This document shows, one piece after another, positions 1,641 through 38,768 of a DNA stretch of 64,000 bases. This stretch comes from Blasia pusilla. Taxonomy: Eukaryota. The notes beneath the pieces are model-generated. The model saw only the letters and a list, made by a program, of their open reading frames with translations, was not told the origin of the DNA and searched no databases. Position 1 is the stretch's first letter. Every line of letters begins with the position of its first letter. The stretch is taken from contig CM114271.1 in assembly GCA_050084515.1 (NCBI GenBank), forward strand, positions 37,448,001-37,512,000, given 5' to 3'. The translations under genes were made by a program, and so were the position numbers.

Positions 1641-2187
1641 AGAATAGGGCCGCGTGTCGTGTCTCAAGCACTTCCTTGCTGCTCGCCGTGCTGTTGCTGA
1701 ATAGAGTGCACAGAACTGCTGTCACTGTCGCTTAGCGACCCACACTCTTCTTATCTGGGCTGAGTGTCGACCATCGGAGGTGAACCGAGCTGCTGATTCA
1801 GTTCCCTGTGTGTCCCTGAACAATTCTGTTTCTTACAGGTGCTCGTAGGACGAAAGCTAGTGGCAGGCAGTGGAATGTTGTGACAGTTGAAGGACGGAAA
1901 AGAGCACGCGCGATCGATTCGTCGGCGGGCATCGCGAAAGAGAGGCTCTGAGTCTTGAGATTATGGCCGGAACAGGTGGGCTGCCTCCTATAGCATCATC
2001 GACAGCGGTAGACAGAGCCGAGTAGAGTGCGCTGCTGGAGTGGAGTGAGAGAAAGCGGTATGCGAAGCAGGTGTAATGGAGGATCAGAACTGGCATTGAA
2101 TTCCGGTAGTACAAGAAGACGCACGTTGTTGTCGGGATTAGAAAGCGGGGAGGCTAGCGGATTGAGGTCAGATTTGGGAGGCGTGAA

Positions 2188-5100
2188 ATGGCAGCGGGTG
2201 GAGCAGGAGCTGGTGGCGGTGGTGGTGGTGGCGGTGGCGGTGGAGGTGGTGGTGGTGGTGGTGGTGGTGGAGGACAAGGTGGTTACGGAGACACCACTTA
2301 CACCAAAGTCTTCGTCGGGGGACTAGCATGGGAGACCCAGCGTGACACTATGCGCCGCCACTTCGAGCAATTCGGAGATATTCTAGAGGCCGTCGTCATC
2401 ACTGATAAGAACACGGGCCGCTCGAAAGGCTATGGCTTTGTGCGCTCCCTCCCCTCCTTCTCTCCCTTCTCCGCATTCACCACACCCACAATCGCTTGAC
2501 TGCTCTGCTCATGGATGGATGGATGGATCATGCTGAGATGAGATGAGAGGATTTCCTGAGCACTCGTCCGATGCCCATGGTTATTTCATGATGATGAACG
2601 CGCGCTACTAATGTTTTTAGCTGCGAGAGCCAATGTACGGATGCTGAAGGGTCGATTCTTATCGTGGTGGTATGAATCACTGAACGCAGACCCCTCTCGT
2701 GTGGAAGGAAGTGACTGATTCGCGTAAAAGTGTTTGGCATCTGTCAGTATTGGTTGGTCGGAGATGTTGTCTCAAAGTCGTTGGGTGGTTGGGCTGTCCG
2801 GTCGATCATGGTCGAATAGGGATGTAGCGATGAGCGGGAAGAGCTATTCAGCTCTCTCAGCTGACGTAGCAGACCAGGCACTCCGTTTGTCGTAGATCCC
2901 CTTCTTCCGGTGTAAGAACCCTCCTGTGCGGATCAACATCTTCGCTTGCTAGATCTCAAGGGGATTCTCTCGATCAAGTCGCCTGTTTTAATTTCTGTGT
3001 CCTTACGTCCCTGCCGAGACTCATCGAGACGAAGTGCTGGCAGCACGTTTTCACCATTTGCGCTCGTTGTTTCGAGCACACTATATTACTCACGGATCAC
3101 TGGAGGCATCGGTCACTAAACAGATCTGGTGCGAGGAAAGGATGCATCTGATTTCATCTCTCGGTGGATTCGTGTCTAACTCTGACCCGAGTCGTCCATC
3201 CCTAGAGAAGAAGGAAGCCCGTAGAGAAGCGAGGGAGTGTGGGTGGTTGTCCCTGCCTGCCTCGATGTGAGATTGAAAATTTTATAACGGATGCAGGTGA
3301 CATTCCGAGATGCGGAAGCAGCGCGCAGAGCTTGCGCGGATCCGACGCCAATCATTGATGGAAGGCGTGCCAACTGCAATCTGGCATCGCTCGGCAATCG
3401 CAACCGTCCTCACGGCCAGCACGGTCGGTCTCACTTAATCTCTGACGCTCACAAGTTGCTCTCCATGCTTTCTGTTTGTTTAGCTGCATCTGCAAGAGGA
3501 CCATCTCCCCCGTCCAGTTATCGGCGGTCCCCGGGGAATAAGATGGGCTGCATATTGGTTGTGGGCTGGCTGGGATCAGTGGACGTCTAGAAACTCCTGG
3601 GAGATTTCTTGGAATCTTTCTGCCAGAGCCGTTAGGTGTCAAGTAGGTAGAATGGTGGAACGAAGCTGTGTCGGGGCTTGGATTCAGTGTTATACAGGAC
3701 GGCGTAGATCCCTTCTCGATCGCGGCCGCAAGCTCTGCCTAGGAATGTTGAGGATACTCTTTCATCTCTCTCACTCCCTCTTCGTGCGGGCGGCTCTGGG
3801 AAATACTTCTTAAACATCCTCCGAAGTCGGGAGTCCCTCACGGTGACGGTCCAGGTCCACGAGTCAGCGGGTGGGACGTGATGATATTCGTGAAGCAATC
3901 CAAGGGATCCGGGGATGTACCCTTGTGCTCTGGAATGATCCGGATTTCTTCACCCAAGCGGAGGAGATGAGGTTGTTCGGTCCATCAGTGAAGTGAGCAC
4001 GCGGGGTCAGTCAGTAGTATTAGGTCTGACCAGTGTATCATTAGCTTATGAGACAGTACAGCCGATTCTTGTCCTGCTAGTTGATACGTCTCTAGAGATG
4101 GAGCCGAACGCGAGGTTGCCAGCGAGCTTGAGATCCTGCGCTACAACCACTGACAAGGAAAGAACTGCTGCCTGCGTGGCATGGGTAAACCTGGGACGGG
4201 ACGGGAAATTGGGAGAAGGCATTGCTGTGGGACTGATGAGGATGCACGTTTCGTTTTTTCCAATTATCTAATGCGCTCAGGCAACCCTTATCGCCCAATA
4301 ACTCCTTTTCCTGCAGGCCCTCAGGCGGGAGGGCCTGGGTACACCGGCGCCCCAACTTTCCCCCAGGCAGGTGCCCCATTCACGGCGTATCCGCAGCAAG
4401 GATTCACCACATACCCTCCGTATGCCAGGTTGGTGGTCTGGATCTCGTCTCGGCTTGCTTCGTTTGCATTCCTCTTCAGCTGCATTCCTTTCTTTATGTA
4501 TCGGGGGCACATCATGCTTGTCTCAGGAAATAGCCTCTGCCCGTGTAGGATCCGATAATAGCTGAGGGACAGTCGAGAAGCTGATAGGGTTTCGTGTTTC
4601 GTGGCCTCACTGGATCCCGGAAGACGAGCTTCTCTCCGGACGAGACTAGATTTTGACGGATGCTCATGGCGAGAGGTGTAGAGATCTCTGACAAATGTGA
4701 CATTTCGTTGTGGTGTTTGGCAGCTACCCACAGTACCCGCCCGACTACACGGGTTACCCCCAGGTGGGTGTGTTTGGATGTACTTGTCTCCTTTCTCCGT
4801 CTTGGTGGCAGAATTTCACATCACGAGAGTTAATTGAGAGTTAGATTGGTAGAGATTTATTGGGCAATGTTCCCCTCTTGGTTCTTTGGGGTTCCGATTG
4901 GGTGATGAATTCCAAGAATTCCCACTCGAGGAGTTGGGGAGGCAATCAGTGATGTGCATGTGCGCGCTGGATTCGTGTGGATGATGATAATTTTGGATGA
5001 GCTACCTCATCGATTGATCGATCTGGACAGATTCTGACGCAAAAGACCTGTGTCGATTCTCTGGTGGGACTGCAGAACTTGTATAGCCCTTATGGCGGTC

Positions 5101-8899: not shown

Positions 8900-10900
8900 A
8901 AATCCTCTAATGAATGCTCAAAATCTTTAGCCCCTGGGAAATTTAAAATGAGTGTTTTTCTTCTCCAAGTGGAAGAGGAAGCCCCTATAAGTAAAGGACA
9001 AATGGGGCGATTCAAAGTTTGACAAAGAGAAGTGGTAACACAAATAATAGTATAGATATGTCACAACCATGTCTCTTTTGCTCTTAAATAATAATTGTAA
9101 CAAACACATATCTTCATACCACTTCCCTGTTGCAAATGTAAGAAGGCATAGGCAACGAGCATGGCAAGGGATGTCATGATCACTTATCAAATTTCCTTAG
9201 GGGGAAGGACTTAAACTTATTGAGTAAAAACAAGGAAACACCAATTATCAAAGTCCTTGAGATCTCGGAAAAAAATTCCAAAAAGGAAGAATAATGATTG
9301 TCTAGCTATAGGACATAATGGAGTTGGATTAAGGAATATAGTTATAGACAAGCTAAACTTAGATGAAAAGAGCAAGATGATTCGATTTTTTTTGTCCCAA
9401 AAATTCAACAAAGCATGGACAACGTTAGATTCCATTTGAAGGAAACCTTTCTCCATGGCATTGATATATGACCAATGTCTTATATCAATGTTGTAGAACA
9501 AGAAGAGTGAGAGGAGATGAAACCAAAAATAAATAACCTATAAAATTTGGACATTGATATGGTGGAAGTCTAGGTTGAGATGCTAGGACAATGATGCAAA
9601 ATGAAGGAGTACGGATAAGGTATGATTAGTATTGAATAATGCTAGGTGAGGATCTTGGTTGATAATACTGATAAGCAAATGCAAATAAATTAGGATTGAG
9701 AAGTAAGAGACTTGATTTAGCAAGATTTTTGAGGTGGTAGGAGAACAATGCTAATCACAATGTGCAATGAGGGGAACTCAAGAGATATGTCACACCCAAA
9801 GGAGGTCCGGTAAAATCAAATAATCAAAGGAGTGGGTACAATGCATCTATCATCATGGAAGAGACGTTATCATAATATTGTGGAAGAAGATAACTCCAAT
9901 ATTAGAAAGGAGATTTCGAACACATAAGAAAGGTGAGTGAAAGAAACGTTTAGGTGTATTAGACAAGGAAGAGATCCAAAGGTTTGCAAGATGAATTTAT
10001 GGAGACTTCATGATCCAAGAAGCACAAGGTCTTGAACAAAAGGGACCTGAAATGGATAGGACACTTTGACTCATAACAATAATCATAGGGTTAAATTTGA
10101 GATACATAAAAGAAAAATAAGAGGGATTGATAATTCAGTAGTCCCCATACATGAAAGCTAAGGATGAACAAGAGATAGAGATGATGTAACTTTGGGCCAA
10201 CAAGAAGTTAGGGCTCAATTCATGCATATGGGGAAAATCTCTACCATGAGTCTTTCATGAAAAAGACAAGAGCTATGTCAAACCTAAAAAGTACAAGGAA
10301 AGTGAATAGATCCGAAAGGCCACTTTGAACCAGGCAAGTGTGTGGACTCCACCATCTCCAAACACAAGATGAGATCGACTTGCGATTAGGGTTTCCATGA
10401 CTTTGAAAATATGGGAAAATGTCCCAAGAATTAACAAGGTTTCTGGCCTTATGGGATCTCATAAGACGAAAAAGAAAGTCCCAAACTCTCTAGAACACTA
10501 AGCACATCTCCACCCCACTACACAAAGTGGGCTTCATGTTTGTAGGAGAGGTGAAATCTACCCCCCATTAGATAACTAAAAAGCAAAGCATTTTAAAACA
10601 GATTTGTTCATTTGACCATTATGAGAGTCTCACAAACAACCTACACGATCTTTGATTGAAACACAGAGGCTCCATATTGATAGTCCTCACGAACGTATAA
10701 TCCGGGTGGAGTGATCTCTTTCCACTTGGCAACAACAAATTAAACGTCGAGCATTGAACTTTCCTTACTCGCTCTTTTTTTACAAGATCCCTAAATCACA
10801 TCCAATAGAAAATGCCTTTAAAATAGAAACCCCTTACTCATCACCACCCTTTTCCCATGGGTTTTCCATCGCCCGTTTTTTATGGAGGCCATTCCCTTTT
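8900..10900 (-). mobile_element. Highly decayed L1-type LINE remnant (APE endonuclease + RT fragments)
   Basis: Minus-strand fragments: LVNSWDIFPYFQSHGNPNRKS...SGLSD resembles the APE C-terminal LxDxW...SRLD...SDH motifs; FRDLKDFDNWCFL resembles RT LDFEKAFDxVxW; FTYRGF resembles YLG. Many stops and frameshifts; boundaries approximate. Confidence 0.5.
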
Positions 10901-13900: not shown

Positions 13901-14410
13901 TTTTAAATTTTAAAATATTTTAATCCACATGATGATTATTTATTTAAAAAGAGTTACCGATTTATTATATTTGAGTTGGAAATTAAATCATTTCTAATAT
14001 TTAGAAATGGAAATAAATAATGTGATTCATTTTTACTGCCCCTACAACTGTCGTGTAAATTGCGCATTTAAATTTCGTGGTGACAAGTCGACTCGGTGGG
14101 CAGAGGGAGAGCAAGGTGTCCACATCAGATTGCTGTATACGTGGGAGCGGGGTGCCACATGATTCAACCCATATCTCTCTCTGGACTTAGAGATCTCCTA
14201 CAATTTCGTTGCGAATAGAGTCGTTATTTTTGCCTTTGCTATGGTTTGTGCACAAGGTTAATGACCACAATTCAGTTGATCAATTGCATCTCAGCTTGCC
14301 AGATTCTTGATTACCTTTAACGGCGATAGTTTTGTAAGGCGACTTCTTATTTTAGATTCAGCATTGAGGATGGTGAAACTCCCTTGTGTGTCAGCAGAGG
14401 TCAGGAGAAC

Positions 14411-14655
14411 GAAGGCCATAGTTTGTCCCGGAAAGGCAATCAATGCGCGTAGGGTAGCGCCTACCTCGAGCTGGGTCGGGCCCACGTTTCAGGTTCGGGA
14501 GCCCCGGGATGGAGAGGTCGCGACGGAGGATAGGGAGGACAGCGCCTCGAGACGGACGGATCTAAACGGACGGCGCGAAACGGACGGAAGGCGCGGAACG
14601 GGCTACGTTAGGTCCGGTTCAAATGACGGAATTTGTCGACGGGTATTAGGGCGGG
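14411..14655 (+). repeat. Left TIR of the MULE
   Basis: Inverted homology to 26760-27029 extends inward to ACGG(G/C)(T)ATTAGGGCGG and is patchier in the inner half. Confidence 0.85.
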
Positions 14656-14716
14656 AATTAGGGGATTCGATCATTTTGGAACGAACGGAGAAGAGCGGTA
14701 GAAACCGAACACGGAG

Positions 14717-14930
14717 GGATTAGCATTTCATTACGAGCGGATTAGCATTTGATTACGAGCGGATTCACGTGGATTTTAACGTGGCGGACGAAGAGCGAGA
14801 GAAACACGGAACGAGGAAGAGCGCTTTGTATGCGGAGACCGTGATTAGCTGATTAAGAGTGGATTAGCATTTCATTACGAGCTTGATTAGTTCTAACTCG
14901 AACGCTTCTAACTTGATTGATTACGAGCTG
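14717..14930 (+). repeat. Left subterminal repeats GGATTAGCATTT(C/G)ATTACGAGC
   Basis: Two tandem copies from 14717, another at 14861, and a partial copy at about 14915. Confidence 0.8.
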
Positions 14931-15190
14931 CGGACCGCGGATTTCAAGTCGGATTAGGCGGATGGGGTCCACTCCGTAACTTTTTCATGTAAGAGATTAT
15001 TTGCGTCCATGAGTATCATTTGCCAATTTGCACGTAAGTAGCTATTGGTGCCACATTCGGCCACGGTGATAGATAAAAGCTTAGATCGTAATCCAAGAAT
15101 ACATGTCTATTATTATGTGCACTATTATTTTGGTGTTCGGTTCCATTTATGTACTGTCCGGTCTTGCCCAGGTCGAATGGACAGAATTCA

Positions 15191-15258
15191 CACTTGAAGC
15201 CTGCACTTAAAGTCTGCACTTTAATTGGAGCCTGCACTTGAAGCTTGCACTTGAATCC
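15191..15258 (+). repeat. ~13-bp tandem repeat CACTTGAAGCCTG, about 5 degenerate copies
   Basis: cacttgaagcctg cacttaaagtctg cactttaattggagcctg cacttgaagcttg cacttgaatcc, immediately upstream of the transposase ATG. Confidence 0.75.
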
Positions 15259-15275
15259 CTGAACAGATTATAGCC

Positions 15276-18200
15276 ATGGTGAAATTCAAGAAATATTTAG
15301 CTTCATTTGAATGCGATGTTATCCAAAACCCTCTCCCTGGTCCTATTTTGAGCGAGCATTCGATTTGGTATGGCAATAGAAAAGAGGCATGGATTCCCTC
15401 AGATAGGGTTGAAGACTTCATTCATGGTGAAGAACAAAGACCACATTTCCAGACCACATTTAGGAAAAGGAATACCGACAAATCAGGGAACATACATGTT
15501 CTGATTCGACATCTTGGTGTTCATATGGACCCCGGGATCATAGGAATACCGTCTGGACCTCTCCGCCAAGTGAGGTTTTTGATTCAAACTCGCTGCAAGG
15601 GAGGTAAGGGTAGTAGCCGTAAAGCCAAAGTACACGGCTTGGGTGTCTCGGGGGCGTGGATGCCAATTTCACTTTGCCGTTGTAACCTCAAAGGACCGCC
15701 CTGGGTGTTCTATGTTGACGCATATGCATTCCAAGCATGTCGATAAGGCGGGCTGTATATGCCATGGGGACTTAGACAAGACTGCGGACATTGCGAATGC
15801 AATTGTTGCCCCGAAGTTGAGTTCTCATTGTAGGGATTTTGTTGAACGGTTATTGCGAGTGAACGTGAGCCCCTTAAATATCATGAAGGAGCATAGGAGA
15901 TGGATTCGTGAACACATTCACGATAATCCTAATCAGGCACAAGCTTGGGGCAGGGACGCTATGTTAAAACCACAAGATATCCTTAATATCAAGCATTCAA
16001 TGCGAAGACGCGAAGGGGGTATGATGGAACCGATGACGCCACTGCAATCCAACATTGGGTTGCAGCTCATCCTGAAAATGTCATACACTACAAGGAGGCC
16101 ATTTCAAGTTTAGGCCAACCTTTCATCCTGGTCATTTCTACACCTTGGATGCTTCAAAATCTTTTGCATCTTGGTAACGGTGGAGCCATCTCCATGGATG
16201 CCACTCATGGCACAAACACATATGAGGTAATTTCAGGGCCTTAAAACTGCAATGTCATTCTCTTAGAGGAGTTTATAGCCTACATTATACGTGGTATCAT
16301 TTGTGATTCTTTGCCGACGATCGGCATAAATGTAAACATTTGGAACGTTGTGTTCACTTTAATAGATATGTACATGAACAATCGGATTCCTGAACACACT
16401 CTTTTCTATGTTCACAGTATCAGCTATTCACGTTGTTGGGTTTTGACAAGTTTCACAACGGATTACCTCTAGTATGGGCCATTTTACAGAGGCATCAACA
16501 TCGGGATCTAGTGGATGCATTGGCCCATATCAAGGATTGGGCAGATACATATATGACAAGAGATTTTGCGTCGGTTGGTAGCCCCGGTTGGAAACCGTCA
16601 TGCTTCATAGTTGACGACTCCAAAGAGGAACAATCGGCAATCAGAGAAGTCTTCCCTGATGTTCCCATAGACCTGTGTCTATGGCATGTAAGGAAGAATT
16701 GGTTAAAGCAATTGCACCAACGAGTCCGCTGTCCAATTACAAAAGCAGATATGAACAGGGACTTGGGTGGTATCATGTACTCACGTGAAGAAGGTGTGTT
16801 CTATGCGAGTCAATAATAGTAGTTTGTTTCATTGTTTCTCAGCTATGTCCGTTGTGGGAGTAGGGTTCATATTAATTAAGCAATGGTTTTCTGATACGAG
16901 AGATCCTGTGGATGTCTCATATCGTTTCATGCGCAAGTGGGCTGCAACTGAACGTCACTTTGTGAAATACTATTTAAACTATTGGCATCCTAAGATTGTT
17001 ACTTGGGCAAAGGGCTATCGTAAGCATGCAAGATCCAACCAAGATACAAATGTCGGGATAGAAAGGTGGCACCACACTCTGAAGATGCATCTCACTTCTA
17101 GCATGCCTACAAAACCCACCCGGAAGCTCATATGGCTTGTGCAGATCTTATGCGGGGAAATAGAAGATTTCTTTTGGTACTTGGGATTTTTGAAACGAGA
17201 GGGTATGGTGAGGAACAAGGCAATCCAGAAAGTCATTCTCATGGCTATTAGAAGGGCAAATGATATCCCAGAAAGCCATGTCACATTTCAATTGGTAGAT
17301 GGGAGGAAATGCGCAATGGTGAAGAGTTGCTCCAAGCCCGACTATTGGCATGATGTGGTTGACTACGACAAGAAAGATGTTGCTTGTACATGCTCTCGTG
17401 CCAATGAAGGATTCACGTGCAAACATCGGGTATGTTTCTTGCACCCCGGATTTGGTGACCAAGCTATAGTCCCACCTGAAATCAAACAGTTCTATGTATT
17501 AAGTATGTCTTATTCCTGCACTAGATGTACGAGGATTTTACGTGCAGCCTACTGAGAATTTTTAAATTGTATCAGGTGAAGTGCTTACTGTTGAGTGGGC
17601 ACTCTGAAGTAGAGTTGTTGTCTTTCCTTGGCACACCTTTTGGTAGCAAAGCTGGTGGGTTGGAAAACATGGTGCAAAGGCATGCACATGTACAGGAGCA
17701 ACATGGAGACACACTAGTGGAATCAGACTTGTCTTACGGTGTTGGTTATCCAGAAGAGGTGCAAGCTACTACTCCTACAGTTGTATCACAAGCAACAACT
17801 CAAGAAGATGTTCGAGAGATGGTGGAAAAATGCTTGGCCACAACCATTGGAGTCCCATTCTGCAATGTTCTTCTTGAACATTTGTATGTACTTTTGCAGA
17901 AGGATATGGACTCACTTCGAACTCAAGCGCGGATAGAGACGAACACAGAACTTCCAGAAAATTTAATGAACATTGGACAACACTTCCATGAACCCTTTGT
18001 TGGAGGCAATTCTCAAGATCGTCGGCTGCGTCGGCGGATGGGTTGGTTTGAGCAAATGCATGAGAGAAGGAATTCACATTCCACACGTTCCACACGGAAG
18101 AATCAACCCCAAGCAATAATGAATCAGGTGGAGTCCTTTCCCAGAGTGAAACGATCAAAATATCTGAACATGGAGGCAGAATTGGAAGCAGATGCATGTA

Positions 18201-18469
18201 ATCATATTGATTTGGACGCTATCGTGAGCCAATATGAAAGCGAGGCAACTAAGGAGAATACTCAACAATCAGAATGGCCTCTGGTAGATACAAGGCCACA
18301 TAAGAACTACAAAATCAGCGCTTCTACTAAGAGAACCACTGCAGATGTCATACTTGATAGTCTGTTGGATGAAGAGCGATATGTTGCGGAGGGTAGTCAA
18401 ATGGATGAGTACTCAAGAAGACCCGATAATTTGTATGTAGTACAGGATTCCCAGATTCATGATTCATGA
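15276..18469 (+). pseudogene. MULE DDE transposase with SWIM zinc finger, frameshifted
   Basis: Catalytic and structural motifs: ISMDATHGTN (D1), YQLFTLLGFD, FIVDDSKEEQSAI (D2), LCLWHVRKNW (CxxH), TNVGIERWHHTLK (E) and SWIM CTC...FTCKH. Introns at 16227-16417, about 16794-16900 and about 17430-17575. Frameshifts near 15500 and in the G run at 16015-16019. Confidence 0.88.
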
Positions 18470-19599
18470 TTGATGAAGCATTTCCGAATTTCACATATTA
18501 GCCACAGAACACAAGAAATCTGATGTTCAACAAAAAAAAATGTATTTTTTTATGTAAGGCCCGGATGTTTACGCACGAGAAATGTGTTCCCTTCTCATGT
18601 TCATGTCCACCATGTCCCATTTTCATGTACGGTGAGCAATCATGTTATGTTTTTACGCAAGCATCCAAACCATAGTAACCATCGTGTAGGTTAAGTTGTG
18701 AACCATAGTAACCTGTCCGACCTATCTTCACGGTTTTGTATAGTAATAGTTGTATCCGAACCCAATTCAATTAATATTCAAGCATCCAAACCTTAGTAAT
18801 TACCACAGTCGGTTTTCTATGGATTCAATCCGTAGTAAACGTACGAGGTATGTTTGTACCCGAACCACGCAAGGTTCCGCAACACCGTGAGCTTCGCGTT
18901 TGGGGCATGTCCGCACCGCCACGCGCTTGTGTCAATTTTAGAGAACTTCTGTAATATAGTTCTGACTACTTCTATAGTCGTAACTAAAAAAAAACACCTC
19001 AGAAGGCCCACGAACCCTACCCCTGAGGGTCGTGCCTCTTCGTAAACATTTAGCGGTGTGAGGTGACCTTCCCCTAATTAGGGCTTGATTAAAATCGTGT
19101 CTAACCGAGATTGTCACAATGGATTGACGATTGGGGGATACGCAACAAGAAGGCTAGAATTGATAGTCCGATGTATGAAGCGAATGCCCTTGAAACACAG
19201 CCTTTGAGGTGTTCATGAATGAACACCTACATTTCGCTGTTCATACATTTTTCGTGTCATTGCATTTATGATCACTAAACTTGTATTTGCTCTGAGTGTT
19301 TCGACCACTTGTCTTTTATTTTTGAACAGGGTGTCATGGACTCTATCTATTCATGAGCTGATTACACATGAGTGCTTTAATTTCTTGGAAATTCAAGAAT
19401 TGACAAGCGTGGTGTTCATACATCGATCCATTGTGGATTACAAAGTTTACCACCAATTACAGGTGGAAGGACATGTGATCATTCATAACATATAAGACAC
19501 ATCAGAATAAAGTAAGGAGGAATTTGTTTAGGTATCATTCAAGAGTACAATCTTAGGAACAAAGATCAAGAATAGCTCTGCAAGTTGTATGTTTAATTT

Positions 19600-22340
19600 A
19601 ATTGACAATGGTATCCTTTTGGTCCATACCATTTCGTCCACAATAGTTCAGCAGACCATGACCTATAGCCCAACTAAGGTAACCTAAATTTCTTGGATAG
19701 ACCTTCATAACACACAAAATGGTAAGGGAAAATGTGCCCCATAAGCGATACACCAAACAGCGTGCATTGCACCTGCACAAAATAGAAGAACCATAAGGCC
19801 ATACATTAAGAACAGAAATCTGCCCGTTTCTGGTTTGTCCAAAGCAGAAAGACAAAACTTCACAGCCTACGTGCCAGGTAGGAACTCTCCTATACTTACT
19901 CTAAGAAATCGCCCTGATCATGAACTAAGTCCTAAACATCCGCAAAATATGATGATATGAACTCCCGCCAAAATGCTTGAAAATTTCTGCAGAAAGTCAC
20001 ATGCACACACATACGCTACAGAAGCATGTTTAGATAGTAGTAACCGTCATATACATAACACATTTGTAAAGAATTGACACCAGGGAAAGTAAGACCAAAG
20101 AGAAAAGTGACACATTACTTGCGAGTGGTCCAAAGGTATGTCGTCATAATCGCCGAGGAAACATATCAAAAAGTATGACAAGGGCGCAAAATATACAGCA
20201 ACCTCTGCAATGAAAGTTCACACACAGGTCTAAGAGATTAAATGCCAATCACCAGATGAAAGGATAATCATAACAGTGAAATCGCATGATACATCTACAC
20301 ACTCACCAAAATGTCATTCCCCGTGGTGGTCAAGGACTTGGAGACATGCCATCCAGAGGCCGCAATGCTGGAGTGCAGGTAAAGGTGTGGCGTGAAATTT
20401 TTCGGCACTAATCCCTTCAATACCGTCCTGCGAAGGTAAGACCAAAGGGTCTTCATGGCTTGTGCCCCGGTCCTTCAGAGTCCCATCTGCAGGTTTCTGA
20501 ACACACTACAACATATCAACACAAGCACAATTACTGGAGATGGTCCGAAGACATACAATAAAAAAATGTTATCGACAGAATTGAGCAGAATGCAAGACAC
20601 CTATTGTGAAGCCATCATCATCCTCCTCCTTTGGGCTTTTTCTTCTTTAGTCATGCCTTTGGGTGCTCTTTCCATGATTTGTGGATCTGCCTGCAAGACT
20701 ACTTCATCGGGGGTATGCGAGTCTTCAATTGGGCCTTCATCACCTGGCCCATGACTATCCATGACCGGGCTAGATTCACCCAGTTCGACGTCAACTTCCG
20801 GGTTCATTCGGCGGGATTTCCGAGATCCTACCGCACCCTTACCTCACTTCTGCACCTTTTCACCACGCACGTTACGTGTCCGAAGCGTCACTGGTCTCCT
20901 CCGCATCTGAATCAAAAGAGTATCCTCCTCACTCTGCTCGACATGATCTCCCGCAATATCCTCCTCACCACCCTCACATGGCGCCTGCTCCTCCTGTATC
21001 ACATGGCGCCCGGTACTATGCGTGGTGGATTGGGGACTTGGTAGATGTGTATCACTACAGTCAGAGTCACTCGAATCTATGATTTCCACATCCAGGCCAC
21101 CCTGCACATCTAGAAGTTGTTAGAGACAATGCGGAATTACAAGGGATACAATGGGAAATCATGAACTCACAACTCTTCAACAATTCATACTGAGAAATTT
21201 GCATGAAATGAAGCAAAGACTATACCCAGACAACCGCATCAGCAAGGGAGCAGCCGACTCCATCCACATACATGCGAGAGACTTTGTCCCTGAACTTGGC
21301 AAGAATGCTAGGTTTACTCTTCTCTTTCCAGATCTTGTAGTTAAACTTGAAGCGTGGGAGGTAGTACTCCTCACTGATGTACCATGCATGCCTTTGTGCT
21401 CGGCGCATTTCATCTAGAACATGCAGGGAATGTTCAACCTGATGCTTCCTGGTTTTGGCTCCAACATCCCATCGATACGGTTCATGTGTGTCCATGATCC
21501 ACACCGCGGCTAGATGATGGAAAGCGGCCATGCATCTCCAGTAGGTGGAACGCTGAACTCTATATACAGGGATAGTAGAAAGGAGAAGTCTGCGGCCCGA
21601 CTCAATCCATCCCCTCACAGTGGTGGTAGGGCACACAAGGGCACCCTCTAACTCCTCTTGGACCTTCTCATACTCATGTATCCTAGCTAAACCTGCCCAT
21701 GAGGTATGACCGTGTTCTTTTGTCCTATAGCCCTCAAAAGCAATCAAAAGATCTGGCAAAATGGGCATAGGTACAAACGGGACCGCTGCCCGTTTGGAAT
21801 GCTCCTTCGCTTTACTGAAGAGAGCAGCCTTCTTCTGTTTTCTGCGATGAGCCAGGCGTTCTTTGTCGACGGTGCCTCGCAGACGCAAGTTGGCTGCAGA
21901 TGGGGTAGCCTGGTTCCCTGCACAAGGAGGAACATAAATGAATGAAGTTCAGCTATCATAAAGCACATACACCAAAAATTGCTACCATCTCACTAACTGC
22001 GTATGAAAGTTCACTTCCTACACCCTTACCATCATCTTCATCCTCCATGTCGTCTCGGTCGTTGTCTGCTTCCACCTTCTTCTTACCACTCGCCCTTGGT
22101 GTTCCAGGCACCGGCCTTAACCAATGTGATGCAATGTGTGAGTTAAAAGTTTCTGGCCCACGAAAGTACTCGATGCACTTGGAGCACAGGCACACGAATT
22201 GCTTATGCTCCTTTGAGTAGCAATAATGAACCCACTCGACCGGGTCCCGCCAAAGAGAGGTTTGTGCGGCTGGTTTCTCTGGAGGACCTACACTCTTGCC
22301 CCTAAATGCAGCAAACATGTTTGCTGGTTGGGCTTCAACC
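19600..22340 (-). pseudogene. MULE cargo gene B: multi-exon protein with an N-terminal C2H2 zinc finger, a helical domain and an acidic region, with premature stops
   Basis: CSKCIEYFRGPETFNSHIASH fits C-x2-C-x12-H-x3-H. Following segments are 21220-21920, then 20844-21107 and 20601-20807 (same frame, separated by one TGA), and further splice-bounded segments at about 20260-20500, 20120-20205 and 19600-19775. The exon model is tentative. Confidence 0.6.
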
Positions 22341-22959
22341 TGGAGTGTATGCACAACGAGTTCTCACTCACATGCCTACGCACCAACATATACAAGCATA
22401 GCTGTAATTTAAAGTTGGAATGCAAAGTTGGAATTTAAAAACATACTTCTAAAAATGTAAGCAAAAAATGTAAGCTAGAATTCAGTATCTAGAATGTAGA
22501 TACAGAATTCCTCTCGCATCCATACCCCAAAGCTCCTACCAAAATTTGTAGGATACATATCCTCAAATTCCATCCGAGAAAAATTCTAGGTTTTGGCTGT
22601 AATACTTTAGCCAAAAGCAGGAATTCCTGGTTTTGTCACCGGGTATATTATATCTGAAAAGTTGACAGAATGTCTACTTCATACAGACACACTAAGAATC
22701 TGTATGAACATCCCAACAATCCAAAATATGTAAATGTGTCAAGGCCACAAACATAAGAAAACCTACTTCTACCCTAAACCTAACATGGCCCACGTGGTCA
22801 AGGTCTTGAGGAGCCCCCACTACATGCCAAACACAAGACGACAAAGACTCGAATTGGTTAGCCAAGCCAACGGGGAACAACATACATGCATGAGGAATTC
22901 AGGTGTACCATGTAAATACCATAAATGTAATCACGCTAAACTCCGTAAAACAAACAATT

Positions 22960-23921
22960 CTAGAAGGAAACAAGGTACCGAGAAATACCCCGAGCTAAAT
23001 TCAGAAGGGCCATGGAACTCAGTACTTCGGACAAATCTGAAATGTGCTCATTCCCAATCGGTGCTTTGTCATCCACATAAGTCTGGTCGATAAGGTAGAT
23101 ACTTTTAGGAGTAACTCCGATAACCCAAGGAACAGGGTCCTTCTCCTCAGAGGTGGACACTCTCCTCTTTAACCGGATTGTACAAAAATTTTTGGCAAGC
23201 ATGTTATGTTTGGATGCCCCCATCAAATGTTTAATGTCCTTAATTCGGACAACATTCATCTCACCTCCCTGGTTTTCCACCACTAGAAATTCAGTCTGTC
23301 CCTTCTTCTGGAAGTAAGAGTCTAACCATACATGGTCCCCCGCCAACCAGGCCTTGGGTGAGAATGCAACATTAAATCCATCATGTATCGCTGCCTGTTC
23401 TAGACACTTATAAGTTTCCAACGGAAACCCTAATACAATCCACTCATCCAAATACATTATGGAGTGAGGATGCAAGCGCTTGCACACAATATCAGCTAGA
23501 AAAAAATCTGAACTAGAACTGCTATATACTATGGGGCTGACCCATGTCTGAAGATTGCCATGGTTCCTTGATAGAAGACCAGCCACGTTTTCAGGTTTGT
23601 TAACCTGAATTCCCAACAACCGCAACCCCTTGGCATCTAAAAACATCGGCTGACCCGACATGGCCCTAATGTGTTGATCCTTGGTGGCTTTAATCCTACC
23701 TCCCCTACTGCCTCAAAAAATGTAACTGTCGATGGCGGACTTGCAATGTTACTGATGACCTTCAACCCTACACAACACCAAAAACAAGCAGAATTCAACA
23801 AGCTTCTGAGAACCCTCAAAATAAGACGAAATTCAAGAAGAATCATGTCAAAAAAATACTGCCCAGAGATGATGTTTCGTGGAATCGATCCATCATCTCT
23901 CGAGTCTCGATGCTCGAGCAT
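22960..23921 (-). pseudogene. MULE cargo gene A: ~280-300 aa globular protein of unknown family, with one frameshift
   Basis: ORF 23637-24002 (GLKVISNIASPPSTVTFFEAVGEVGLKPPRINTLG) and ORF 22960-23661 (MSGQPMFLDAKGL...PWVIGVTPKSIYLID) join in frame if one G is restored in TTAGGGCCATG at about 23663. Composition is protein-like, with alternating beta-strand patterns. Confidence 0.6.
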
Positions 23922-25264
23922 AAGCAAAGCAAAGCGTGTTGGCGGATGGAAGGAAGGAAGGGTAGCATCATTTACCTGCCGAATTCGTTTACCTGCTAGC
24001 AAATCAGAGTGACTTTAATGCTAGGATGGTAGGATAATTTATCTCCTAGCACATCAGAATGACTGACAAGAATATCTAGGCAAATTCTGATTGCCTTTAT
24101 TCTCAGCAGAAGCCTATAGAATCCCAGCACACTCAAACATATCCACAACCAAAAATAATCAGGCACATAGCAATTCCAACCACATTTGGATTGAAAACAA
24201 CAAAAAGTGGTAGCTATACCTCGCTTCAGACATAGTAGGATTTAGAGGTCAGATTAATCAACTGCGCACACATAAGCACGCCTAAGAAAGGACTTGAAGT
24301 TAATAGCAGCCTATGCCTTTACCCAACACTATCTTCCAAACGAGTCCCGATTGAGCTTTAACATTTTATGATGACACTTGCCATCACAAGATGATGTCTA
24401 TATCCTGTCTAAGTATAAAAAGGTTGAGCACAATTACTGTACGATTTCATGGTACAAGCTATCAATTGAGGTGGGGCGGAAGTACCACCATTACTCAGAT
24501 CGTCTATGGCCTTCGGCCGAACAGGGTTTTCTTGTGCCCAAACGCCTCAATACACTTTTGACCCTAAACGACTAATTCTACATTTTTGACTTATCCCTCA
24601 CTTTAGGACCCTAAATGCTTTCGCACGAATTTACCTGCTAGTAATTCAGAATGATTTAGCAAATCAGAATGACTAAGCAAGTGACTTCCACAGATACAAA
24701 GGATGCAACATGCCTAAATATATATAAGCTTTGAATCAACTGCCCACACGTAAGCACGAACATTAGCAGAGAGAGAGGAAGTCGAGCAGAGGTGGGCGAA
24801 CGACACCGGAGAAAGCACTCACCAGAGGTAAGTGAACGAAGGAGAGCCGAGCAACCGAGCAACCGAGCAACCGAGCTTTTCTCTCATAACACTCTCCTTC
24901 ACAAACACTTCCTATTCTATGTATCTCAGCCCTTAGCAAAAATCTTCAGAGTTTACTCACCATCTTCTTTGAATCCTGAAGTTAGTCACTGTCGGATAGA
25001 TTCTATCAAAATACATCACTTTTTTCATTCAATACCCCCCCCTGGTCTCACCACTTCTAGATTCATTCCTCATCAACTCCATACTTTTAGGAACATGCTT
25101 GAAAAACTGCTAGTTATCATGCTTTTAACCTTCACACTTCTTGGCGCTTCTAGTTAATCCATCCAATCTGTAGTTTGTGATTGACAACGAGATAGATGAA
25201 GTGTTTTTGTCTGCTTCGGAAACTTTAATTTGCATATACTCAATCTGCAACACAAGTTATCCAT

Positions 25265-25825
25265 TGGGAAATTACACCCATAGAACATCGTTTTCGCACC
25301 ATAGGACACTCCCGGTATTGACAGTCTAAATCTCCTGGCTGACACGGTGATGGGGGTCCGCGGCTATCTGTGGCTTTCACGAGCAGACAGGCGAGTTTCA
25401 AAACCCAAGGTATCATGTGCATGACACCTAGGGTTTTGAGAGACGATAGATGTTAGACCTCTTCCCGTAAGAAGACGCGAGAATATCCGTGCTCTTGAGG
25501 ACAATTCAGTTCGTTTTTTGGTTTGCTAATTCTTAAATAGTATGCTGCAGTGAACAGCGGACTATGTCCTCTTCTCTTTCTTTCTTTCTTCTCTCTTTCT
25601 TCTCTCTTACTCGGAAGTGCACACTCCTCCGGGCGTCGGTTCTGCAAAATGATTCATTCATTTGTGGGAAATTACACCCATAGAACATCGTTTTCGCACC
25701 ATAGGACACTCCCGGTATTGACAGTCTAAATCTCCTGGCTGACACGGTGATGGGGGTCCGCGGCTATCTGTGGCTTTCAGGGGCAAACGGGCGAGTTTCA
25801 AAACCCAAGGTATCATGTGCATGTG
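25265..25825. repeat. ~160-bp near-identical direct repeat pair inside the MULE
   Basis: TGGGAAATTACACCCATAGAACATCG...AAACCCAAGGTATCATGTGCATG occurs at about 25265-25423 and about 25665-25823. Confidence 0.9.
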
Positions 25826-26439
25826 CATGCCAGATTTTAAGGTGAATCAGGATATACACTCTTCTCGGGGACGGGCCGAGGACGGGATTTAAGGTGAATC
25901 ACGATATACACTCTCCTTATTCAAGAGGGCAGAATAAGGATATACACTCTTCTCGGGGACGAGCACGAGAACATCACGAGACATGAATCAGAGTAGAGAG
26001 AGAGGAATTCAATGCAGAGGTGGCGAACGACAACGGAGAGAGCACTCACCACCAGAGGTAAGTGAACGAAGGAGAGTCGGAGCATACGAGCATCAGGAAT
26101 TCAGCATTGCAGACGAGCATCAAGAATTCAGCCGAGCAGCCGAGCATCAGGAATCTTAAAGCGAGAACTTGACCAAAAAAATGAGCAGCCATATGTGGAA
26201 AATTTCTCGATTCCAAGCAGCCCATCTTAAACATCAACGAGCACCAGGAATACTGAAGCTAGTTAAGATTGGCCGAAAGCCAGGCGACGAGCACCAAGAA
26301 TACGTAGTAGCCAGCCTTTACTAAAGCACGAGCCCGATCAGAATGGCCGAGCAGACGAGCATCAGCTCCGATCAAGATCCGGAAGAACGAGAACACCGCG
26401 AGAACGAGATCAAGATCCGGAAGAACGAGGACATCGTCA

Positions 26440-26730
26440 AGAACGGGAGCGAGTCGAGCGCCAGGAGCGAGTCGAGCGAGCTGAGCCACGAGCGAACGAT
26501 CAAGAGCGAGTCGAGCGCCAAGAGCAAACGAGCGAGTCGAGCACCAGGAGCGAACGAGCGAGTCGAGCGCCAGGAGCGAACGACCCGGAGCGAGTCGAGC
26601 GCCAAGAGCAAACGAGCGAGTCGAGCGCCACGAGCGAACGACCAGGAGCGAGTCGAGCGCTAGGAGCGAGTCGAGCGAGTCGGGCGAGCCGAGCCAGGAG
26701 CGAGTCGAGTGAGAGCTGCACGAGTCGAGA
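26440..26730 (+). repeat. Right subterminal CpG-rich tandem array (core GAGCGAGTCGAGCGCCARGAGCRAAC)
   Basis: About 11 GAGTCGAG cores in variable-length units adjacent to the right TIR. Confidence 0.9.
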
Positions 26731-26759
26731 ACGACCGCCCTACCGCCAAGAGTGAACGA

Positions 26760-27029
26760 CCGCCCTAATGCCGTCAAGAACGGACTTCGTCCATCCCTCC
26801 CCGTCCTCCCTGACTTTCCATCCCGTCCGTCTCCCACCGTCTACGGCGCGTCGTCCGTCTCTGGAAGGCGTCCGTCACGACCTCTCCATCTCGGGGCTCT
26901 TGAACATTTTGACATAAATGATCATCAACTCTATTGCATTTGGGCAAGGAAACGTGGTCCGACCTCCATTCTGGGGTAGGCGCTACCCTACCGGCATTGA
27001 ATGCCTTTCTGGGATGAACTATGGCCTTC
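26760..27029 (-). repeat. Right TIR of the MULE
   Basis: Inverted copy of 14411-14655 with a ~40-bp insertion at about 26905-26948. Confidence 0.85.
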
Positions 27030-29170
27030 GCATGAGAACAAAGATAACTCATATTCACGCCAACAAGTTCTACTTCTAGAAAATGCGTAAGACTATCTGA
27101 TGGCAGCGAATGTAGAATGCAAGTGGCACCTTTTGCATTGCTGTGTTTGAGAAACACGACGTGGTTACCGAATACATATTTTTTTGTTTTGTGTAGCTTG
27201 AAGTGTACCTACCTTCATTTTCTAGCAGCCGATTTGTGCTGGAGAACCAAGGTGCTCCTTAATTATATTGTGTTTCTTGGTTGACTCACCACTGATTACA
27301 TGTGCAGATTGGGCTGCATGTGTGTAAGAGTGAATCGAGCATCTTCATTCGGGAGTGAAATTGTGGTATGTGGGGATGAAATGAAATGAAACAACGGCGA
27401 GGCGAACAATTATTCTTTATGCATGTTGGCAGCGGCAACATTTTGCAGTCAGAACTAGTCAGAAGATGCAGCAGGTGTGTGTGCGCGCAATTGAACCACT
27501 ATCCCGTGAGGGTGTCCAAATCTCCGAGAGCATTGTACCAGTTGGTTTAACATGTAGCCTTATCACACTTGGCGTATTCTCGAGGTTTAGTGACTTTGCA
27601 CGATCCGGCTTAGCCTTGTTTTCTTTTCTACCTCTATTAAGTATAGCTCAGTTTAGTGCGACCGGCTTGTTCTCCAACTAGGGCAGAAAATTTGTGCTAA
27701 GGTAAGGGCCGATTGTCCATTGTGTTTGCTCACGTTGCAACAACATAATTCTGTAACTCAGTCTTCAATAATTTGGACCAACCAATCCCCCTAAGTGGCT
27801 TGTCTAAGCCACAGTACGTTAATTATTTTCTTATAGTGCATCATAAATGGTTCCTTAGTTCAAATCTGAAATATGGCCAAACACACATCACAATTAATAT
27901 CTTGTTAATAGACTTAAGCAGATAGAAGGAAGAGGATCTCCCCCCAGAGGTACGCTTGGAATTCTCGAGGGGAATCCCATATTTTTCATTTTCCACCACG
28001 GGCCTTTTCTTTTGGTCCGCAACCCAAACATGGTTTGTGACTTGCGTTTAAATAGTTACCCATCAAGATGGCTTGGGGGAGTCTTCCTACACATTGTTAA
28101 ACTCCCAAATCCCAAAATGCATCTTAGAGCTTGGATGTGCATTTTTTGTCTCATGGCTAGAGCCCAACTTAGCTCTTCTTATATGGCATCTCATGTTTGG
28201 CTCTCATCTTGGAAGTTGGCTCGAGGATCTTACACCTTTCTTGCCTTGCCTTCATCCACATGAATGCATTGTGAATAGCTAAGTGTATGGCCTAAGGTTA
28301 CATGTGGAAAAATTACGTGTCCGCGGACATGTCTATATCCATGGACTTACATCCGTCCTATGGAAGGACTTTTCCATATATGTTCCACCTTCCCCTTCTT
28401 TCTTATTCCCTCCCACTTGCCTTCGTGATTCATACTCTCTTGTTTCTTCCTCCCTCCACCTTTGTTTATTGCCCCAGTTGCCTCTTTTGGGATGCGCATA
28501 TGAAGATGGAACACATAATTAATATAGTTTTGTCATTCTGACCCATCATACATGGCCTATTCAAGACCAAGTCAACTTGGTCTTAAAAGAGTAGACTTAA
28601 TACAATTGAAGCTCATTTGTAGGCTTGTTTAGAATACATTTGTTAAAAAAAAAGAGATCACAAGATCTCACATTGTTAGTTCACCATCACTGATCTACAT
28701 TTCTTTTGGAGAGTGTCCCTTGGATTTTCAAACAACTATGGTATCCAAATCTGACATTTATAGTCAATTTTGAGTCAACTTAGAGATGGGCGTGGAATCC
28801 GTGTGGCTACTAATGGGTATTAAATTACACATTGTTACCTACTTGTGTGATAAAATTCAACGGTAACAATATCCGTTCTATACAGAAACATAGAGTGACG
28901 TTGATCTTAATCTAGGTATTTTCTGTGAATTGCCTAGCCCCTCTTTTGACACTTCACAAAATTATTTGAACAATTGTGTGGATGAAAATTCACATGGAGG
29001 TAAGTTGAAGTGTAAATAGTTTTGGTGCTTCATTTCTCATAGAACCTTTTTCTTTTTATCCTCCTACTTATAGTAACCCATATATGTTTCATTGAGAGTG
29101 CCCTTTTATACGTGGAATCAGTTCAATTGGGAGCCTCTCAATGAGAACTAGCGCTCTTATAATGATAATA

Positions 29171-33600: not shown

Positions 33601-36155
33601 GGAGATGTATCCACAACGATTGAGCCCAAGAGTCCAGGTTATGGACCTGATCAGCCAATTTTTGCTAAAATGGTCAGTTTGGGTTTTCTGTCACGAGGTT
33701 GCAGGCCACTTTCTCAAGACCTTGTGGCCTTGAAGATATTGGTGAAATATATTTTTTAAATGCAAGTTATTCTTTCAACTTTGAATATGACCATTTCTTA
33801 CTCCAGATGCTTGAATTGAAAGGGTTGCTGTCATGCTGGCATTCCAGGTCACCAATGAACGATTGACAACAACCGACCATGAGCAAAATGTTCATCACAT
33901 CGAATTCGAATTGGGTGCAGATGTGAGTTGCAGAGGTTACGAGTCTCTCTAATATTTTTTGATGATCCAAAATTTTTGAAGTTAAAGCTCACTTCAAACT
34001 TCTTCTCATTTTTTTGAATCATCACCGCATCAGGAACTTCTAGACAATTCTCTGGTCCTGATAATGCCAAGCAAATTTGTGATTTTGTTCCAGGAACTGA
34101 AATATGCACCAGGAGATGTCCTGACACTAGTACCATGTCAAAATTCAGATAATGTTGATGTGTTCCTCAATCGGCTACATCTTGATAGTGATGCTTACAT
34201 ATCAGTGAGTTATTCATGTAATCCCCTCTTAGAATTTGATATCTATGGGATCTTCCAAGGGACATATCCCATATCAATAAGGTAGTTCCTAAGTACTCTT
34301 TAAAGTGCTATCTAAGCTTTATGTCATTGGTATGTATGTCCTCACTTGCTTTGGTTTCATTGCACAGTTATGCCAGTTACTATTGCCACTTCGGTTCTTC
34401 CAATCAGATTCATATGGTGACTCTATCTACACTTGATAATCATGTATGTAGGTGGAGGCTTCACAATCAAAGCCAGTGTGCATCTGGAATGATCCCCAAA
34501 TGCTGCAATTAGGCCCTGTTAAAATCAAGTCTCTTATTGAAGGTGTTTTAGATGTGTCTTCAGCATCTCCAAGACGATACTTTTTTGAGGTTAGTACTTT
34601 CTGCTGTTGTAGCCTTGTGTACTGATTTTGCTTTGTTACTATTTTGGACCAATGCCTCTTGAGGTATTATGCAACTCTTCAAGAATTTTACTGCATTTTC
34701 TGTCACTGATGTTCGAGAAAATTTGTTGAGTGAAAATATGCATACAACTTTCATCATGGTGACAGGTGATGAGCCATTTTGCCACGGCTGAACATGAGAA
34801 AGAGAGGCTGCAATATTTTGCAACTTCGGAGGGTAGGGATGATCTTTATCAGTACAATCAGAGGGAACGCCGGTCAGTCCTTGAGGTACACTTGTCATGT
34901 GAAGCTTAAAGCTCAAATTCTCAAGGCAAGCAGATTCTTTAGTTGTGGACAAATTTATTTTATCAAGTAGAAAGACGAGTTTATTGTGTCCCCTAGCTTT
35001 AAGCAAGTGATGTCGCTGGCATTTCGACCACCTGGTGGACCTTTCAGTATAGTCTGTGTGATCTGAGTAAGTTTTGAGTTGAGCAAGCAATAGTCATGGT
35101 TGGAAGAGGCTAGAAGTTTTAGACGCAAAAGTGGTGAGTACTACAGTGAGTAGCAGCATGGGGGGATTTGATCCTAGCAAACATGTTTAGCTTACTGTGC
35201 ATCATTGTTTTCAGGTGCTTCTAGACTTCCCTTCAGTTCAGTTGCCTTTGGAGTGGGTTCTTCAGCTGGTTCCAAGACTCAAACCGAGATCATTTTCCAT
35301 TGCTTCTTCTTTGCGTGCACACCCTAATCAGGCACATGTTACTGTGGCTGTGGTGGAGTGGGTCACTCCATTCAAACGCAGAAGGCAGGGATTGTGTTCA
35401 ACATGGTTATCTCAACTTGATCCCAATTCAGGTATGAAGTTGGATTGTCCATGGTGTTTTTTTGTGGTGGGAATTTTGACTAGGGTGCAGACTACTTTGG
35501 ACTCGTTGACAATACTTACTAGCATGGTGTGTCACTTCATTAAGGTATTTTGTATACTAAAAGGATTAGAGGATGGTTTCGTTAGAATATGCAATCCTGA
35601 AAAGATAGATCTTCATGTGCAGGTGACATTTTTGTTCCAGTGTGGATCAATCAGGGAGCTTTGAAATTACCCCCTCCAGCTGTCCCCCTTATTCTGGTAG
35701 GACCAGGAACAGGCTGTGCTCCATTCCGAGCTTTCATTGAGGACAGAGTTGCTGTATCGAAAAGTGAAAAAGTTGCACCTATTGTATTCTTCTTTGGTTG
35801 TCGCCACGAGGAGAAGGATTACCTGTATAAGGAGTTTTGGCTGTCTTGCACCACGAGGGAAAATGTGATGTCCTTGGAAAGAGGAGGAGGTCTGTTTGTG
35901 GCCTTTTCACGAGACCAAGCTCAAAAGATATATGTCCAACACAGGATTCGTGAGAACAGCAAATTGGTTTGGAAGCTTCTGCAGTCAGGAGCAGTTATCT
36001 TCATATCTGGGTCAGCAAACAAAATGCCTGCTCAGGTCACCTCGGCCTTTGAAGAAGTTATCGCAATAGAAGCTGGTATATCCCCAGAATTAGCTAGACG
36101 ATTTTTGAAGCAGCTGGAACTGAAGGGTCGCTTCAGTGTGGAGGCGTGGTCATAG
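30665..36155 (+). CDS. NDOR1: NADPH-dependent diflavin oxidoreductase 1 (NDOR1/ATR3/TAH18), 12 exons
   Basis: Exons 30665-30802, 31250-31327, 31440-31544, 32285-32376, 32681-32871, 33533-33672, 33848-33922, 34094-34204, 34452-34589, 34766-34885, 35215-35431 and 35623-36155. Flavodoxin motifs FVASTCGQGDPP, FGLGDSGYQKYN and GLGDDQH; FAD/NADPH motifs LKPRSFSIASS, GPGTGCAPFR and FFGCR; C-terminal EAWS. Confidence 0.95.
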
Positions 36156-37327: not shown

Positions 37328-38768
37328 CTAGTTGCCATTAATAGGAGCCTCAGGATGCCGCACTCTTCCTAGCCAAACGTAATACGGGACCTTGATCACC
37401 GGTACATAAGGAATATGACCGCTTAGATTTTCTTCATGGACTGCAGCCACAGCATCAGACGCAAATCGATTCATCCTGTCAGCAAGGTATCCCTATCTTG
37501 AAACACATTTGCAGGACTCGACAAACCAATACAGCGTTCATATCGCGGTTTGTGAGAAGAAAAGAACAAACCATCCTGCCAACACATTCAACATAGGACG
37601 AAGCGACACTCCGGTTCTGTGCCGGAAAGGTCCATAACGTTTCGTATGAACACGAATTTCGAAGCTGACAATCTAGGGATCTCTTCATTAGCCACTTTCC
37701 TTCAACCGCAATGCTGACATGGGTTTGGGCAACGAGATTATTGAGGGTGCACGCGACGGAAGGAGGGCACTGGTGAAATGAAGATCGGCCACTGATCCAT
37801 GAAGGTTCAGGTGTGCATCTCACTCGGCAGGTGAGAATTGGAAGCTTATGCTAGACAACGAGGAGGAAAGCTACGCACCGCGTTCAAGAGCATGATCAAG
37901 GTAGGATCGTCGCTCAGGCCCTAGATCGATGTTGTCCATGTCAAAGATGCACCTCCAAAACCAACGAGTTAAGTACCCGTGCTGGCGTTCTGGAGAATCG
38001 TACTTCATAGAAGTGTAAAAATCCGCTACACCAAGTACGCCAACAGTCGGATCTAAATATGATAGAGCTTTGTCAACGGCTGCCATGAAAGGTGGAATCA
38101 CTGCCATTTCAACAACAATCAGTTCAGTGAAGAGCCGCAATGACTTCATTAAGTCCAATGAACACGCATTACAGCGATCCGTGGCCAAGGTCCATCACGG
38201 CTCTTCGTCTACTAAGCGGGGTTCGGCGAATTTTGTGATGTAGAAGGACTGCGAGCTTACGAAGGCGCCACCAATTCTGCACCAGTGTAACGGCTGCAAT
38301 GCTGTAAGCTGTGTTTACTCTTTCCAGCTCACGAAGAATCCGAGGGGTTGAGGACTTACTTGAAAGAGAGTAAGAGAAGGTAATCAGGCTCGCAGGTTTA
38401 GTCTCGGGCTCAAAATCGCATACGTCTGCTTCGACGACCTCCACATTCTTCCACCCTCGTTGCTTTACCTTCCTCCGCGCAACATCACAAAGAGGACCGC
38501 AGATGTCCACCACATAAATCTTCTCGAACTTCGACAGATCGAAGTACTCTGCCATCATGTCCACGTTCTCTCCGGTACCACCTCCCAGGTCTACCCATAC
38601 GAGACCGGAAAGATCTTCCAGCTTGGCCACTGTCGTGGCGCAAGCCCTCAGCATACTCCTTCTACCATGTAAGAATCTTGCTCGAAAATGATCATCTGCC
38701 AAAATGCCACTCACCCTTCCGCTTTCAATTCAAGCGCGCGCTCGTTTGTGTATGTGGAGGGAGGGAGG

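Follow-up and report, generated by a model that had tools for sequence, protein, structure and literature searches.

Mutator-like elements (MULEs) are described in the excerpted text of PMC6446971 as having long terminal inverted repeats (TIRs) and target-site duplications (TSDs) of 8-11 bp, and as often carrying one or more extra open reading frames (ORFs), among them mudrB, the DNA-binding mutB, vanB and vanC, and antisense PMD ORFs. According to passages of PMC13547354, two to three genes are typical of MuDR elements in Arabidopsis, and the accessory proteins of transposable elements are often fast-evolving and lineage-specific. Where functions of the extra genes are given, mudrB is said to be 'apparently required for integration' (excerpts of PMC6446971), and VANC is reported to bind non-coding parts of the element that encodes it and to counteract silencing (excerpts of PMC6446971 and abstracts). 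Spectre MULEs have a C2H2 ORF and an 8-bp TSD, as stated in part of PMC6446971. The locus described here lies in a 64,000-nt stretch of Blasia pusilla DNA (contig CM114271.1, positions 37,448,001 to 37,512,000; hereafter the window, to which all coordinates refer unless another contig is named). Its ORF A is best explained as an accessory gene that is specific to its lineage and belongs to an autonomous MULE, in the manner of mudrB or vanB/vanC, a reading that we hold with moderate confidence.

The carrier of ORF A is 12,621 bp long, with inverted ends at 14410 and 27030. The TIRs are two 56-nt arms, on the left at 14410..14465 and on the right at 26975..27030, with 89% complementarity between them, and patchy similarity between the left and right sides runs inward for roughly 250 bases. 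Directly flanking the arms are CAGGAGAA on the left (8 bp, 14402..14409) and CATGAGAA on the right (27031-27038), which agree at seven of eight positions and are read as an 8-bp TSD. The plus strand holds a predicted transposase gene (15255..18466) that consists of five open frames of 140-314 codons, which follow and overlap one another. The Pfam MULE domain PF10551 was matched within it at 16394-16816 (E 1.1e-10; 42.3 bits, cut-off 27.6), and a pattern search located a SWIM-like CxC-x9-CxH motif in the transposase frame 16755-17552, where the Pfam SWIM model gave no match. Because of the TIRs, the TSD and the Pfam MULE domain, the carrier is classed from its sequence features as a Mutator-like element with its own predicted transposase gene, and the sequence-only reading, which had placed ORF A inside such an element, was correct on this point.

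Several further repeats lie in the non-coding DNA on the right side of the element. A 159-nt direct duplication (25265-25423 and 25665-25823) has 97% identity between copies lying 400 nt apart, and three short duplicated segments with 89-97% identity are found about 1,228 nt apart (24765-24849 and 25992-26079). Subterminal tandem repeats at 26370..26713, which are GC-rich, based on GAGCGAGTC and have periods of 9, 26, 58 and 84, adjoin the right inverted repeat. This array generates long low-complexity frames on both strands, at 26262-26840 (minus) and 26267-26752 (plus), which should not be taken for genes. No Rfam families were found in the window. Host genes lie on either side of the element, with an RRM exon at 2158-2496 (plus strand) and a class I methyltransferase exon at 38172-38729 (minus strand). 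A diflavin reductase-like host gene is represented by FAD_binding_1 and NAD_binding_1 exons at 35191-36152 (plus strand), its best PDB match being NADPH-cytochrome P450 reductase (E 7e-33). The element is thus located among genes.

ORF A itself is a stop-to-stop open frame of 250 codons on the minus strand (22963..23712), followed by a stop codon at 22960-22962, and the long ORF noticed in the sequence-only reading was thus confirmed. The first in-frame ATG, at 23661, gives a predicted product of 233 aa, of about 26.2 kDa and pI 7.1, with a globular-type composition and nothing unusual. The motifs VCKRLHPHSIMY, DGFNVAF, WIVLGFP, HVWLDSYF, FLVVE, FCTIRLK and WVIGVTPKSIYLID, which had been quoted for this protein, are all within ORF A; KPPRI, quoted with them, is encoded elsewhere, in an overlapping minus-strand frame (23637-24014).

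The length of ORF A was compared with dinucleotide-preserving shuffles (200 per region), counting those with a frame of at least 250 codons. Shuffles of 20000-25000 never contained such a frame (0 of 200; longest 209 codons), shuffles of 14200-27200 did so in 2 of 200 cases and shuffles of the whole window in 6 of 200. Five frames of at least 240 codons were observed in the whole window against 0.035 expected, and four of the five lie inside the Mutator-like element, where 0.015 would be expected. The length of ORF A is beyond chance, and mainly for this reason ORF A is taken to be coding sequence that is real or was so until recently.

Composition by codon position was set against two groups, the first comprising five known coding segments (three transposase frames and two host exons) and the second the 52 other ORFs of at least 110 aa, some of which are possibly exons themselves. 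Purines at position 1 make up 0.60 in ORF A, compared with 0.52-0.63 in the known coding segments, and 5 of the 52 other ORFs reach 0.60. The difference in G between positions 1 and 2 (G1-G2) is 0.13, compared with 0.05-0.16 in the known coding segments, and is reached by 3 of the 52. In its codon-position composition ORF A resembles coding sequence, as in the transposase and the host exons. The codon-usage log-ratio of ORF A was 0.041 against a null mean of -0.043 (sd 0.07), about 1.2 sd above it with a training set of 1,128 codons; as 8 of the 52 null ORFs score above ORF A and the score separates poorly, codon usage is weak support for coding.

Immediately upstream, the minus-strand frame 23637-24014 (125 codons) overlaps the 5′ end of ORF A, as the sequence-only reading had described, and a 1-nt repair would join the two. 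The length of this frame is that expected by chance, the mean longest ORF in shuffled 5-kb stretches being 128 codons, and it has null-like values in composition (0.49 for purines at position 1, 0.01 for G1-G2) and a codon-usage score of -0.094. The part outside ORF A (23713..24014) is probably a non-coding 5′ leader or promoter region. The proposal of a 1-nt deletion, whose restoration would extend ORF A to 23921 and to about 280 aa, accordingly has no support: the frame that it would add is of chance length and null-like in composition, and, since the in-frame ATG at 23661 already yields a 233-aa product, the repair is needless.

An ORF in a young insertion can remain open without function, and ORF A might be such a relic, or an accidental frame kept open by luck, that does nothing now. 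This would fit the lack of a homologue and of a confident fold (see below), the low language-model recognition value, a codon-usage score within the upper null range and the occurrence of frames of at least 250 codons in 6 of 200 whole-window shuffles. Against it are the local shuffles, none of which reached 250 codons, the clustering of long frames inside the element and the contrast between the coding-like composition of ORF A and that of the adjacent upstream frame; moreover, the opposite (plus) strand across ORF A is split into short frames of at most 119 aa. On balance we consider a functionless frame unlikely, and the reading of ORF A as an accessory gene is preferred.

Relatives of ORF A were sought in protein, profile and nucleotide collections. 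No Pfam model matched at E≤1, nor at E up to 10, and NCBIfam and PHROGs likewise gave no match. A phmmer search of 1,835,955,588 representative proteins from public genomes and metagenomes returned nothing at E≤1e-3, a word-index protein search at near lengths produced 196 candidates with none at E≤1e-3, and exact look-up of eight start variants found all eight absent. Among PDB sequences seven rows appeared up to E 10, the best of which, a legume lectin at E 0.038, is not significant. The ESM Atlas gave no usable match; the recognition value of ORF A, 1832, lies below the level attained by 91 of 100 known-family proteins, which does not tell whether the gene is real. At the nucleotide level, one pattern match in viral contigs, 23 in metagenome contigs and 27 in prokaryote genome contigs were obtained, none of which was confirmed, and nothing was found in phage records. 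Within the window a self-search for a second copy recovered only ORF A (next best E 1.5), and the all-against-all comparison with the other ORFs of the element gave a best E of 0.65. Pfam-modelled MULE accessory proteins include the plant mobile domain and the VANDAL-associated DUFs, and none of the known MULE accessory domains that have Pfam models matched ORF A, ORF B or exon B′ at E up to 10. ORF A is therefore an orphan with respect to protein, profile, viral, phage, metagenome and prokaryote collections, as had been supposed, and no conserved host gene matched it among public protein collections.

As a control, a 266-aa fragment of the transposase was searched by word index among longer proteins and also found no match, which is weak evidence. 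When the fragment was used as bait in metagenome contigs, 86 pattern matches were reduced to two loci, with 38% identity over 46 residues, and no ORF A-like sequence was present in the flanks of these two loci (best E 0.29). A weak match of 38% over 46 residues to the region of the transposase fragment with WHHTLKMH, one of the bait peptides, was noted at 10001-10159 of a 308,701-base metagenome contig (L001); this match may represent a distant MULE, the contig being of eukaryote size. Since the transposase fragment likewise found next to nothing, the lineage seems poorly sampled, and the orphan status of ORF A may in part be a measure of that sampling rather than proof of true novelty.

The searches also bear on whether ORF A was captured, as a fragment or a retro-copied version of a host gene specific to the lineage, in the Pack-MULE manner and with no role in transposition. 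Captured gene fragments in MULEs are usually short and broken, whereas ORF A runs to 250 codons and is coding-like, although its uninterrupted frame is also what would be expected of a retro-copied or single-exon capture. The absence of any homologue among 1.84 billion representative proteins or in Pfam indicates that no conserved host gene corresponds to it, and so speaks against the capture of a fragment of such a gene. Pack-MULEs do share with this element a non-transposase coding sequence between Mutator ends, but the element has its own transposase gene, and ORF A has no host parent detectable in public protein collections. MULEs do pick up pieces of host genes, and their extra ORFs are often assumed to be host-derived, but Pack-MULEs are described as having lost the transposase that is retained here (excerpts of PMC6446971). 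Capture is thus less probable again than a functionless frame, and an accessory gene remains the favoured reading.

Structure prediction with AlphaFold2 without an alignment gave a pLDDT of 32.7 for the 233-aa product and of 37.1 for its 138-aa core, so that a comparison of folds is not meaningful. The DSSP strings of both low-confidence models have several beta strands in the central part, which is compatible with the earlier description of the protein as 'beta-rich' but carries no weight for an OB fold. That ORF A is a horizontally acquired fungal or RNA-virus gene for an SSB-like, OB-fold nucleic-acid-binding protein, as proposed in the sequence-only reading, has in its favour only these strands, the resemblance of motifs being an unverified suggestion of that reading, and is highly improbable: the library of public genomes and metagenomes contained no match at E≤1e-3, viral contigs, phage records, PHROGs and Pfam gave no confirmed match, the PDB offered nothing better than the lectin, and the fold is not confident. 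With no relatives and unusable models, both the OB fold and the viral or fungal origin are unsupported; an outcome of no homologues and no confident fold, which that reading had itself named as refuting the proposal, is what was found for ORF A.

The reading as an accessory gene is strengthened by what surrounds ORF A in the element. ORF A and a second unit, gene B, are the sole long minus-strand frames, and both are convergent with the plus-strand transposase gene. In the 18.5-21.2 kb interval between the convergent units, wholly contained ORFs do not exceed 104 aa, and the largest frame touching it has 144 aa (20610-21044). Gene B lies downstream of ORF A on the same strand and comprises two frames, 21959-22363 (135 codons) and 21223-21948 (242 codons), which a predicted intron joins in phase; the joined frame runs for 343 codons without a stop from 22363 and for about 328 when counted from its ATG at 22318. 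By this prediction from sequence, exon 1 (22030..22363) is the coding part of the first frame and contains that ATG as its first, the intron (21918..22029) is 112 nt long and reads GTAAGG...GTGCAG, and exon 2 (21223..21917) lies within the second frame and is followed by a stop at 21220-21222. The splice signals are strong, with a donor G/GTAAGG at 22029 and an acceptor TGTGCAG/ at 21918 (slashes mark the splice sites). Exon 1 contains a canonical C2H2 zinc-finger pattern, C-x2-C-x12-H-x3-H (22124-22192), and no other strict C2H2 pattern occurs in any of the six reading frames of the window; exon 2 would encode about 230 aa, basic (pI 9.8) and without a known domain. Gene B is thus predicted to be a two-exon C2H2 zinc-finger gene. 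No relatives of it were found in Pfam (E up to 10), NCBIfam, PHROGs, the ESM Atlas or the word-index protein search. If a weaker donor, GAA/GTACTG, at 23025 in the tail of ORF A were spliced to an acceptor at 22340, ORF A and gene B would form one frame of 547 codons from the ATG at 23661; splicing into such a joint product is only a possibility.

Upstream of ORF A, as read along the strand of ORF A, an 18-nt motif resembling TAGCAAATCAGAATGACT is present in four copies (23997..24674, listed on the plus strand, with copies at 23997, 24047, 24639 and 24657). The four matches compare with 0.09 expected by chance, none of 100 shuffles reached four, and there are no copies elsewhere in the window. 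The array is possibly a promoter element or a protein-binding array of the transposon.

Of the described systems, mudrB (MURB) of maize MuDR is among the nearest, being, like ORF A, a second and non-transposase gene in an autonomous Mutator element; mudrB and mudrA are transcribed towards each other. The same position is occupied by ORF A, a non-transposase ORF that lies between the TIRs of a transposase-encoding element in convergent orientation. To our knowledge MuDR has no further zinc-finger gene, unlike the element of ORF A. The two genes also have in common the lack of a known domain and a narrow lineage, the role of mudrB being given as auxiliary in the excerpted text of PMC6446971, and ORF A is likened to mudrB by position and description, not by sequence. 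VANDAL21 (Hiun) of Arabidopsis is, in the excerpts that describe it, a three-gene Mutator element whose vanB and vanC encode fast-evolving accessory proteins. The element of ORF A is similar in having two accessory coding units and, upstream of ORF A, the non-coding 18-nt array; it differs in that ORF A and gene B are without any Pfam domain, and binding and anti-silencing by ORF A would be attributed to it by analogy only. A separate C2H2 or DNA-binding ORF beside the transposase is described for yeast Mutyl (mutB) and for Spectre in part of PMC6446971, and is paralleled here by the C2H2 pattern of gene B together with the 8-bp TSD. This likeness, which is drawn from descriptions and not from sequence, concerns gene B, not ORF A.

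Since this anatomy matches the literature on Mutator elements, we read ORF A as coding sequence of the accessory kind, belonging to an autonomous MULE, and we lean toward regarding it as a further case, isolated in sequence, of the Mutator accessory gene, a known kind. The term 'cargo', applied to ORF A in the sequence-only reading, is doubtful, because the element has its own transposase and the position of ORF A is typical of Mutator second genes.

In the arrangement that we propose, the element at 14410-27030 would be an autonomous Mutator-like DNA transposon with a multi-exon MULE transposase gene on its plus strand, and the other half of the element would form an accessory module on the minus strand, in which ORF A, and then the two-exon C2H2 gene, face the transposase. 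ORF A could be a separate gene starting at the ATG at 23661 or the first coding exon of a transcript shared with gene B. By analogy with mudrB, mutB and vanB/vanC, its product would be a non-catalytic helper. Together with the neighbouring zinc-finger protein it may act on the non-coding repeats of the element itself, and such action might aid integration or shield the element from silencing. A more ambitious version, which we put forward tentatively and think possible rather than probable, is that ORF A, alone or spliced to gene B, founds a new Mutator accessory family whose product recognises the 18-nt repeats of the element and serves as an anti-silencing or integration-targeting factor, an analogue of VANC or MURB that is unrelated in sequence and possibly of a new fold.

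In a search of sequencing runs with the ORF A stretch, the best DNA runs, all labelled as one organism and perhaps including the source sample, shared 0.39-0.40 of the sampled words, and no RNA run sharing the stretch was among the runs listed. Smaller shares, in runs of a related species and in air metagenomes, carry no weight here. No second copy, orthologue or transcript of ORF A was seen, and we infer that ORF A is expressed and that it belongs to a family of elements rather than to one copy alone.

For annotation, ORF A should be treated as transposon content and taken neither for a host gene nor for a sign of horizontal transfer from viruses or fungi. Its interest is modest and would grow if copies and transcripts proved it to be conserved and expressed. 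Accessory genes decide the integration of Mutator elements and their escape from silencing, and a handful of them have been studied (mudrB, mutB and vanB/vanC), among which we know of no sequence similarity. An intact-looking element that combines two uncharacterised accessory coding units with a repeated non-coding motif would provide a further system in which the origins of such helpers can be considered.
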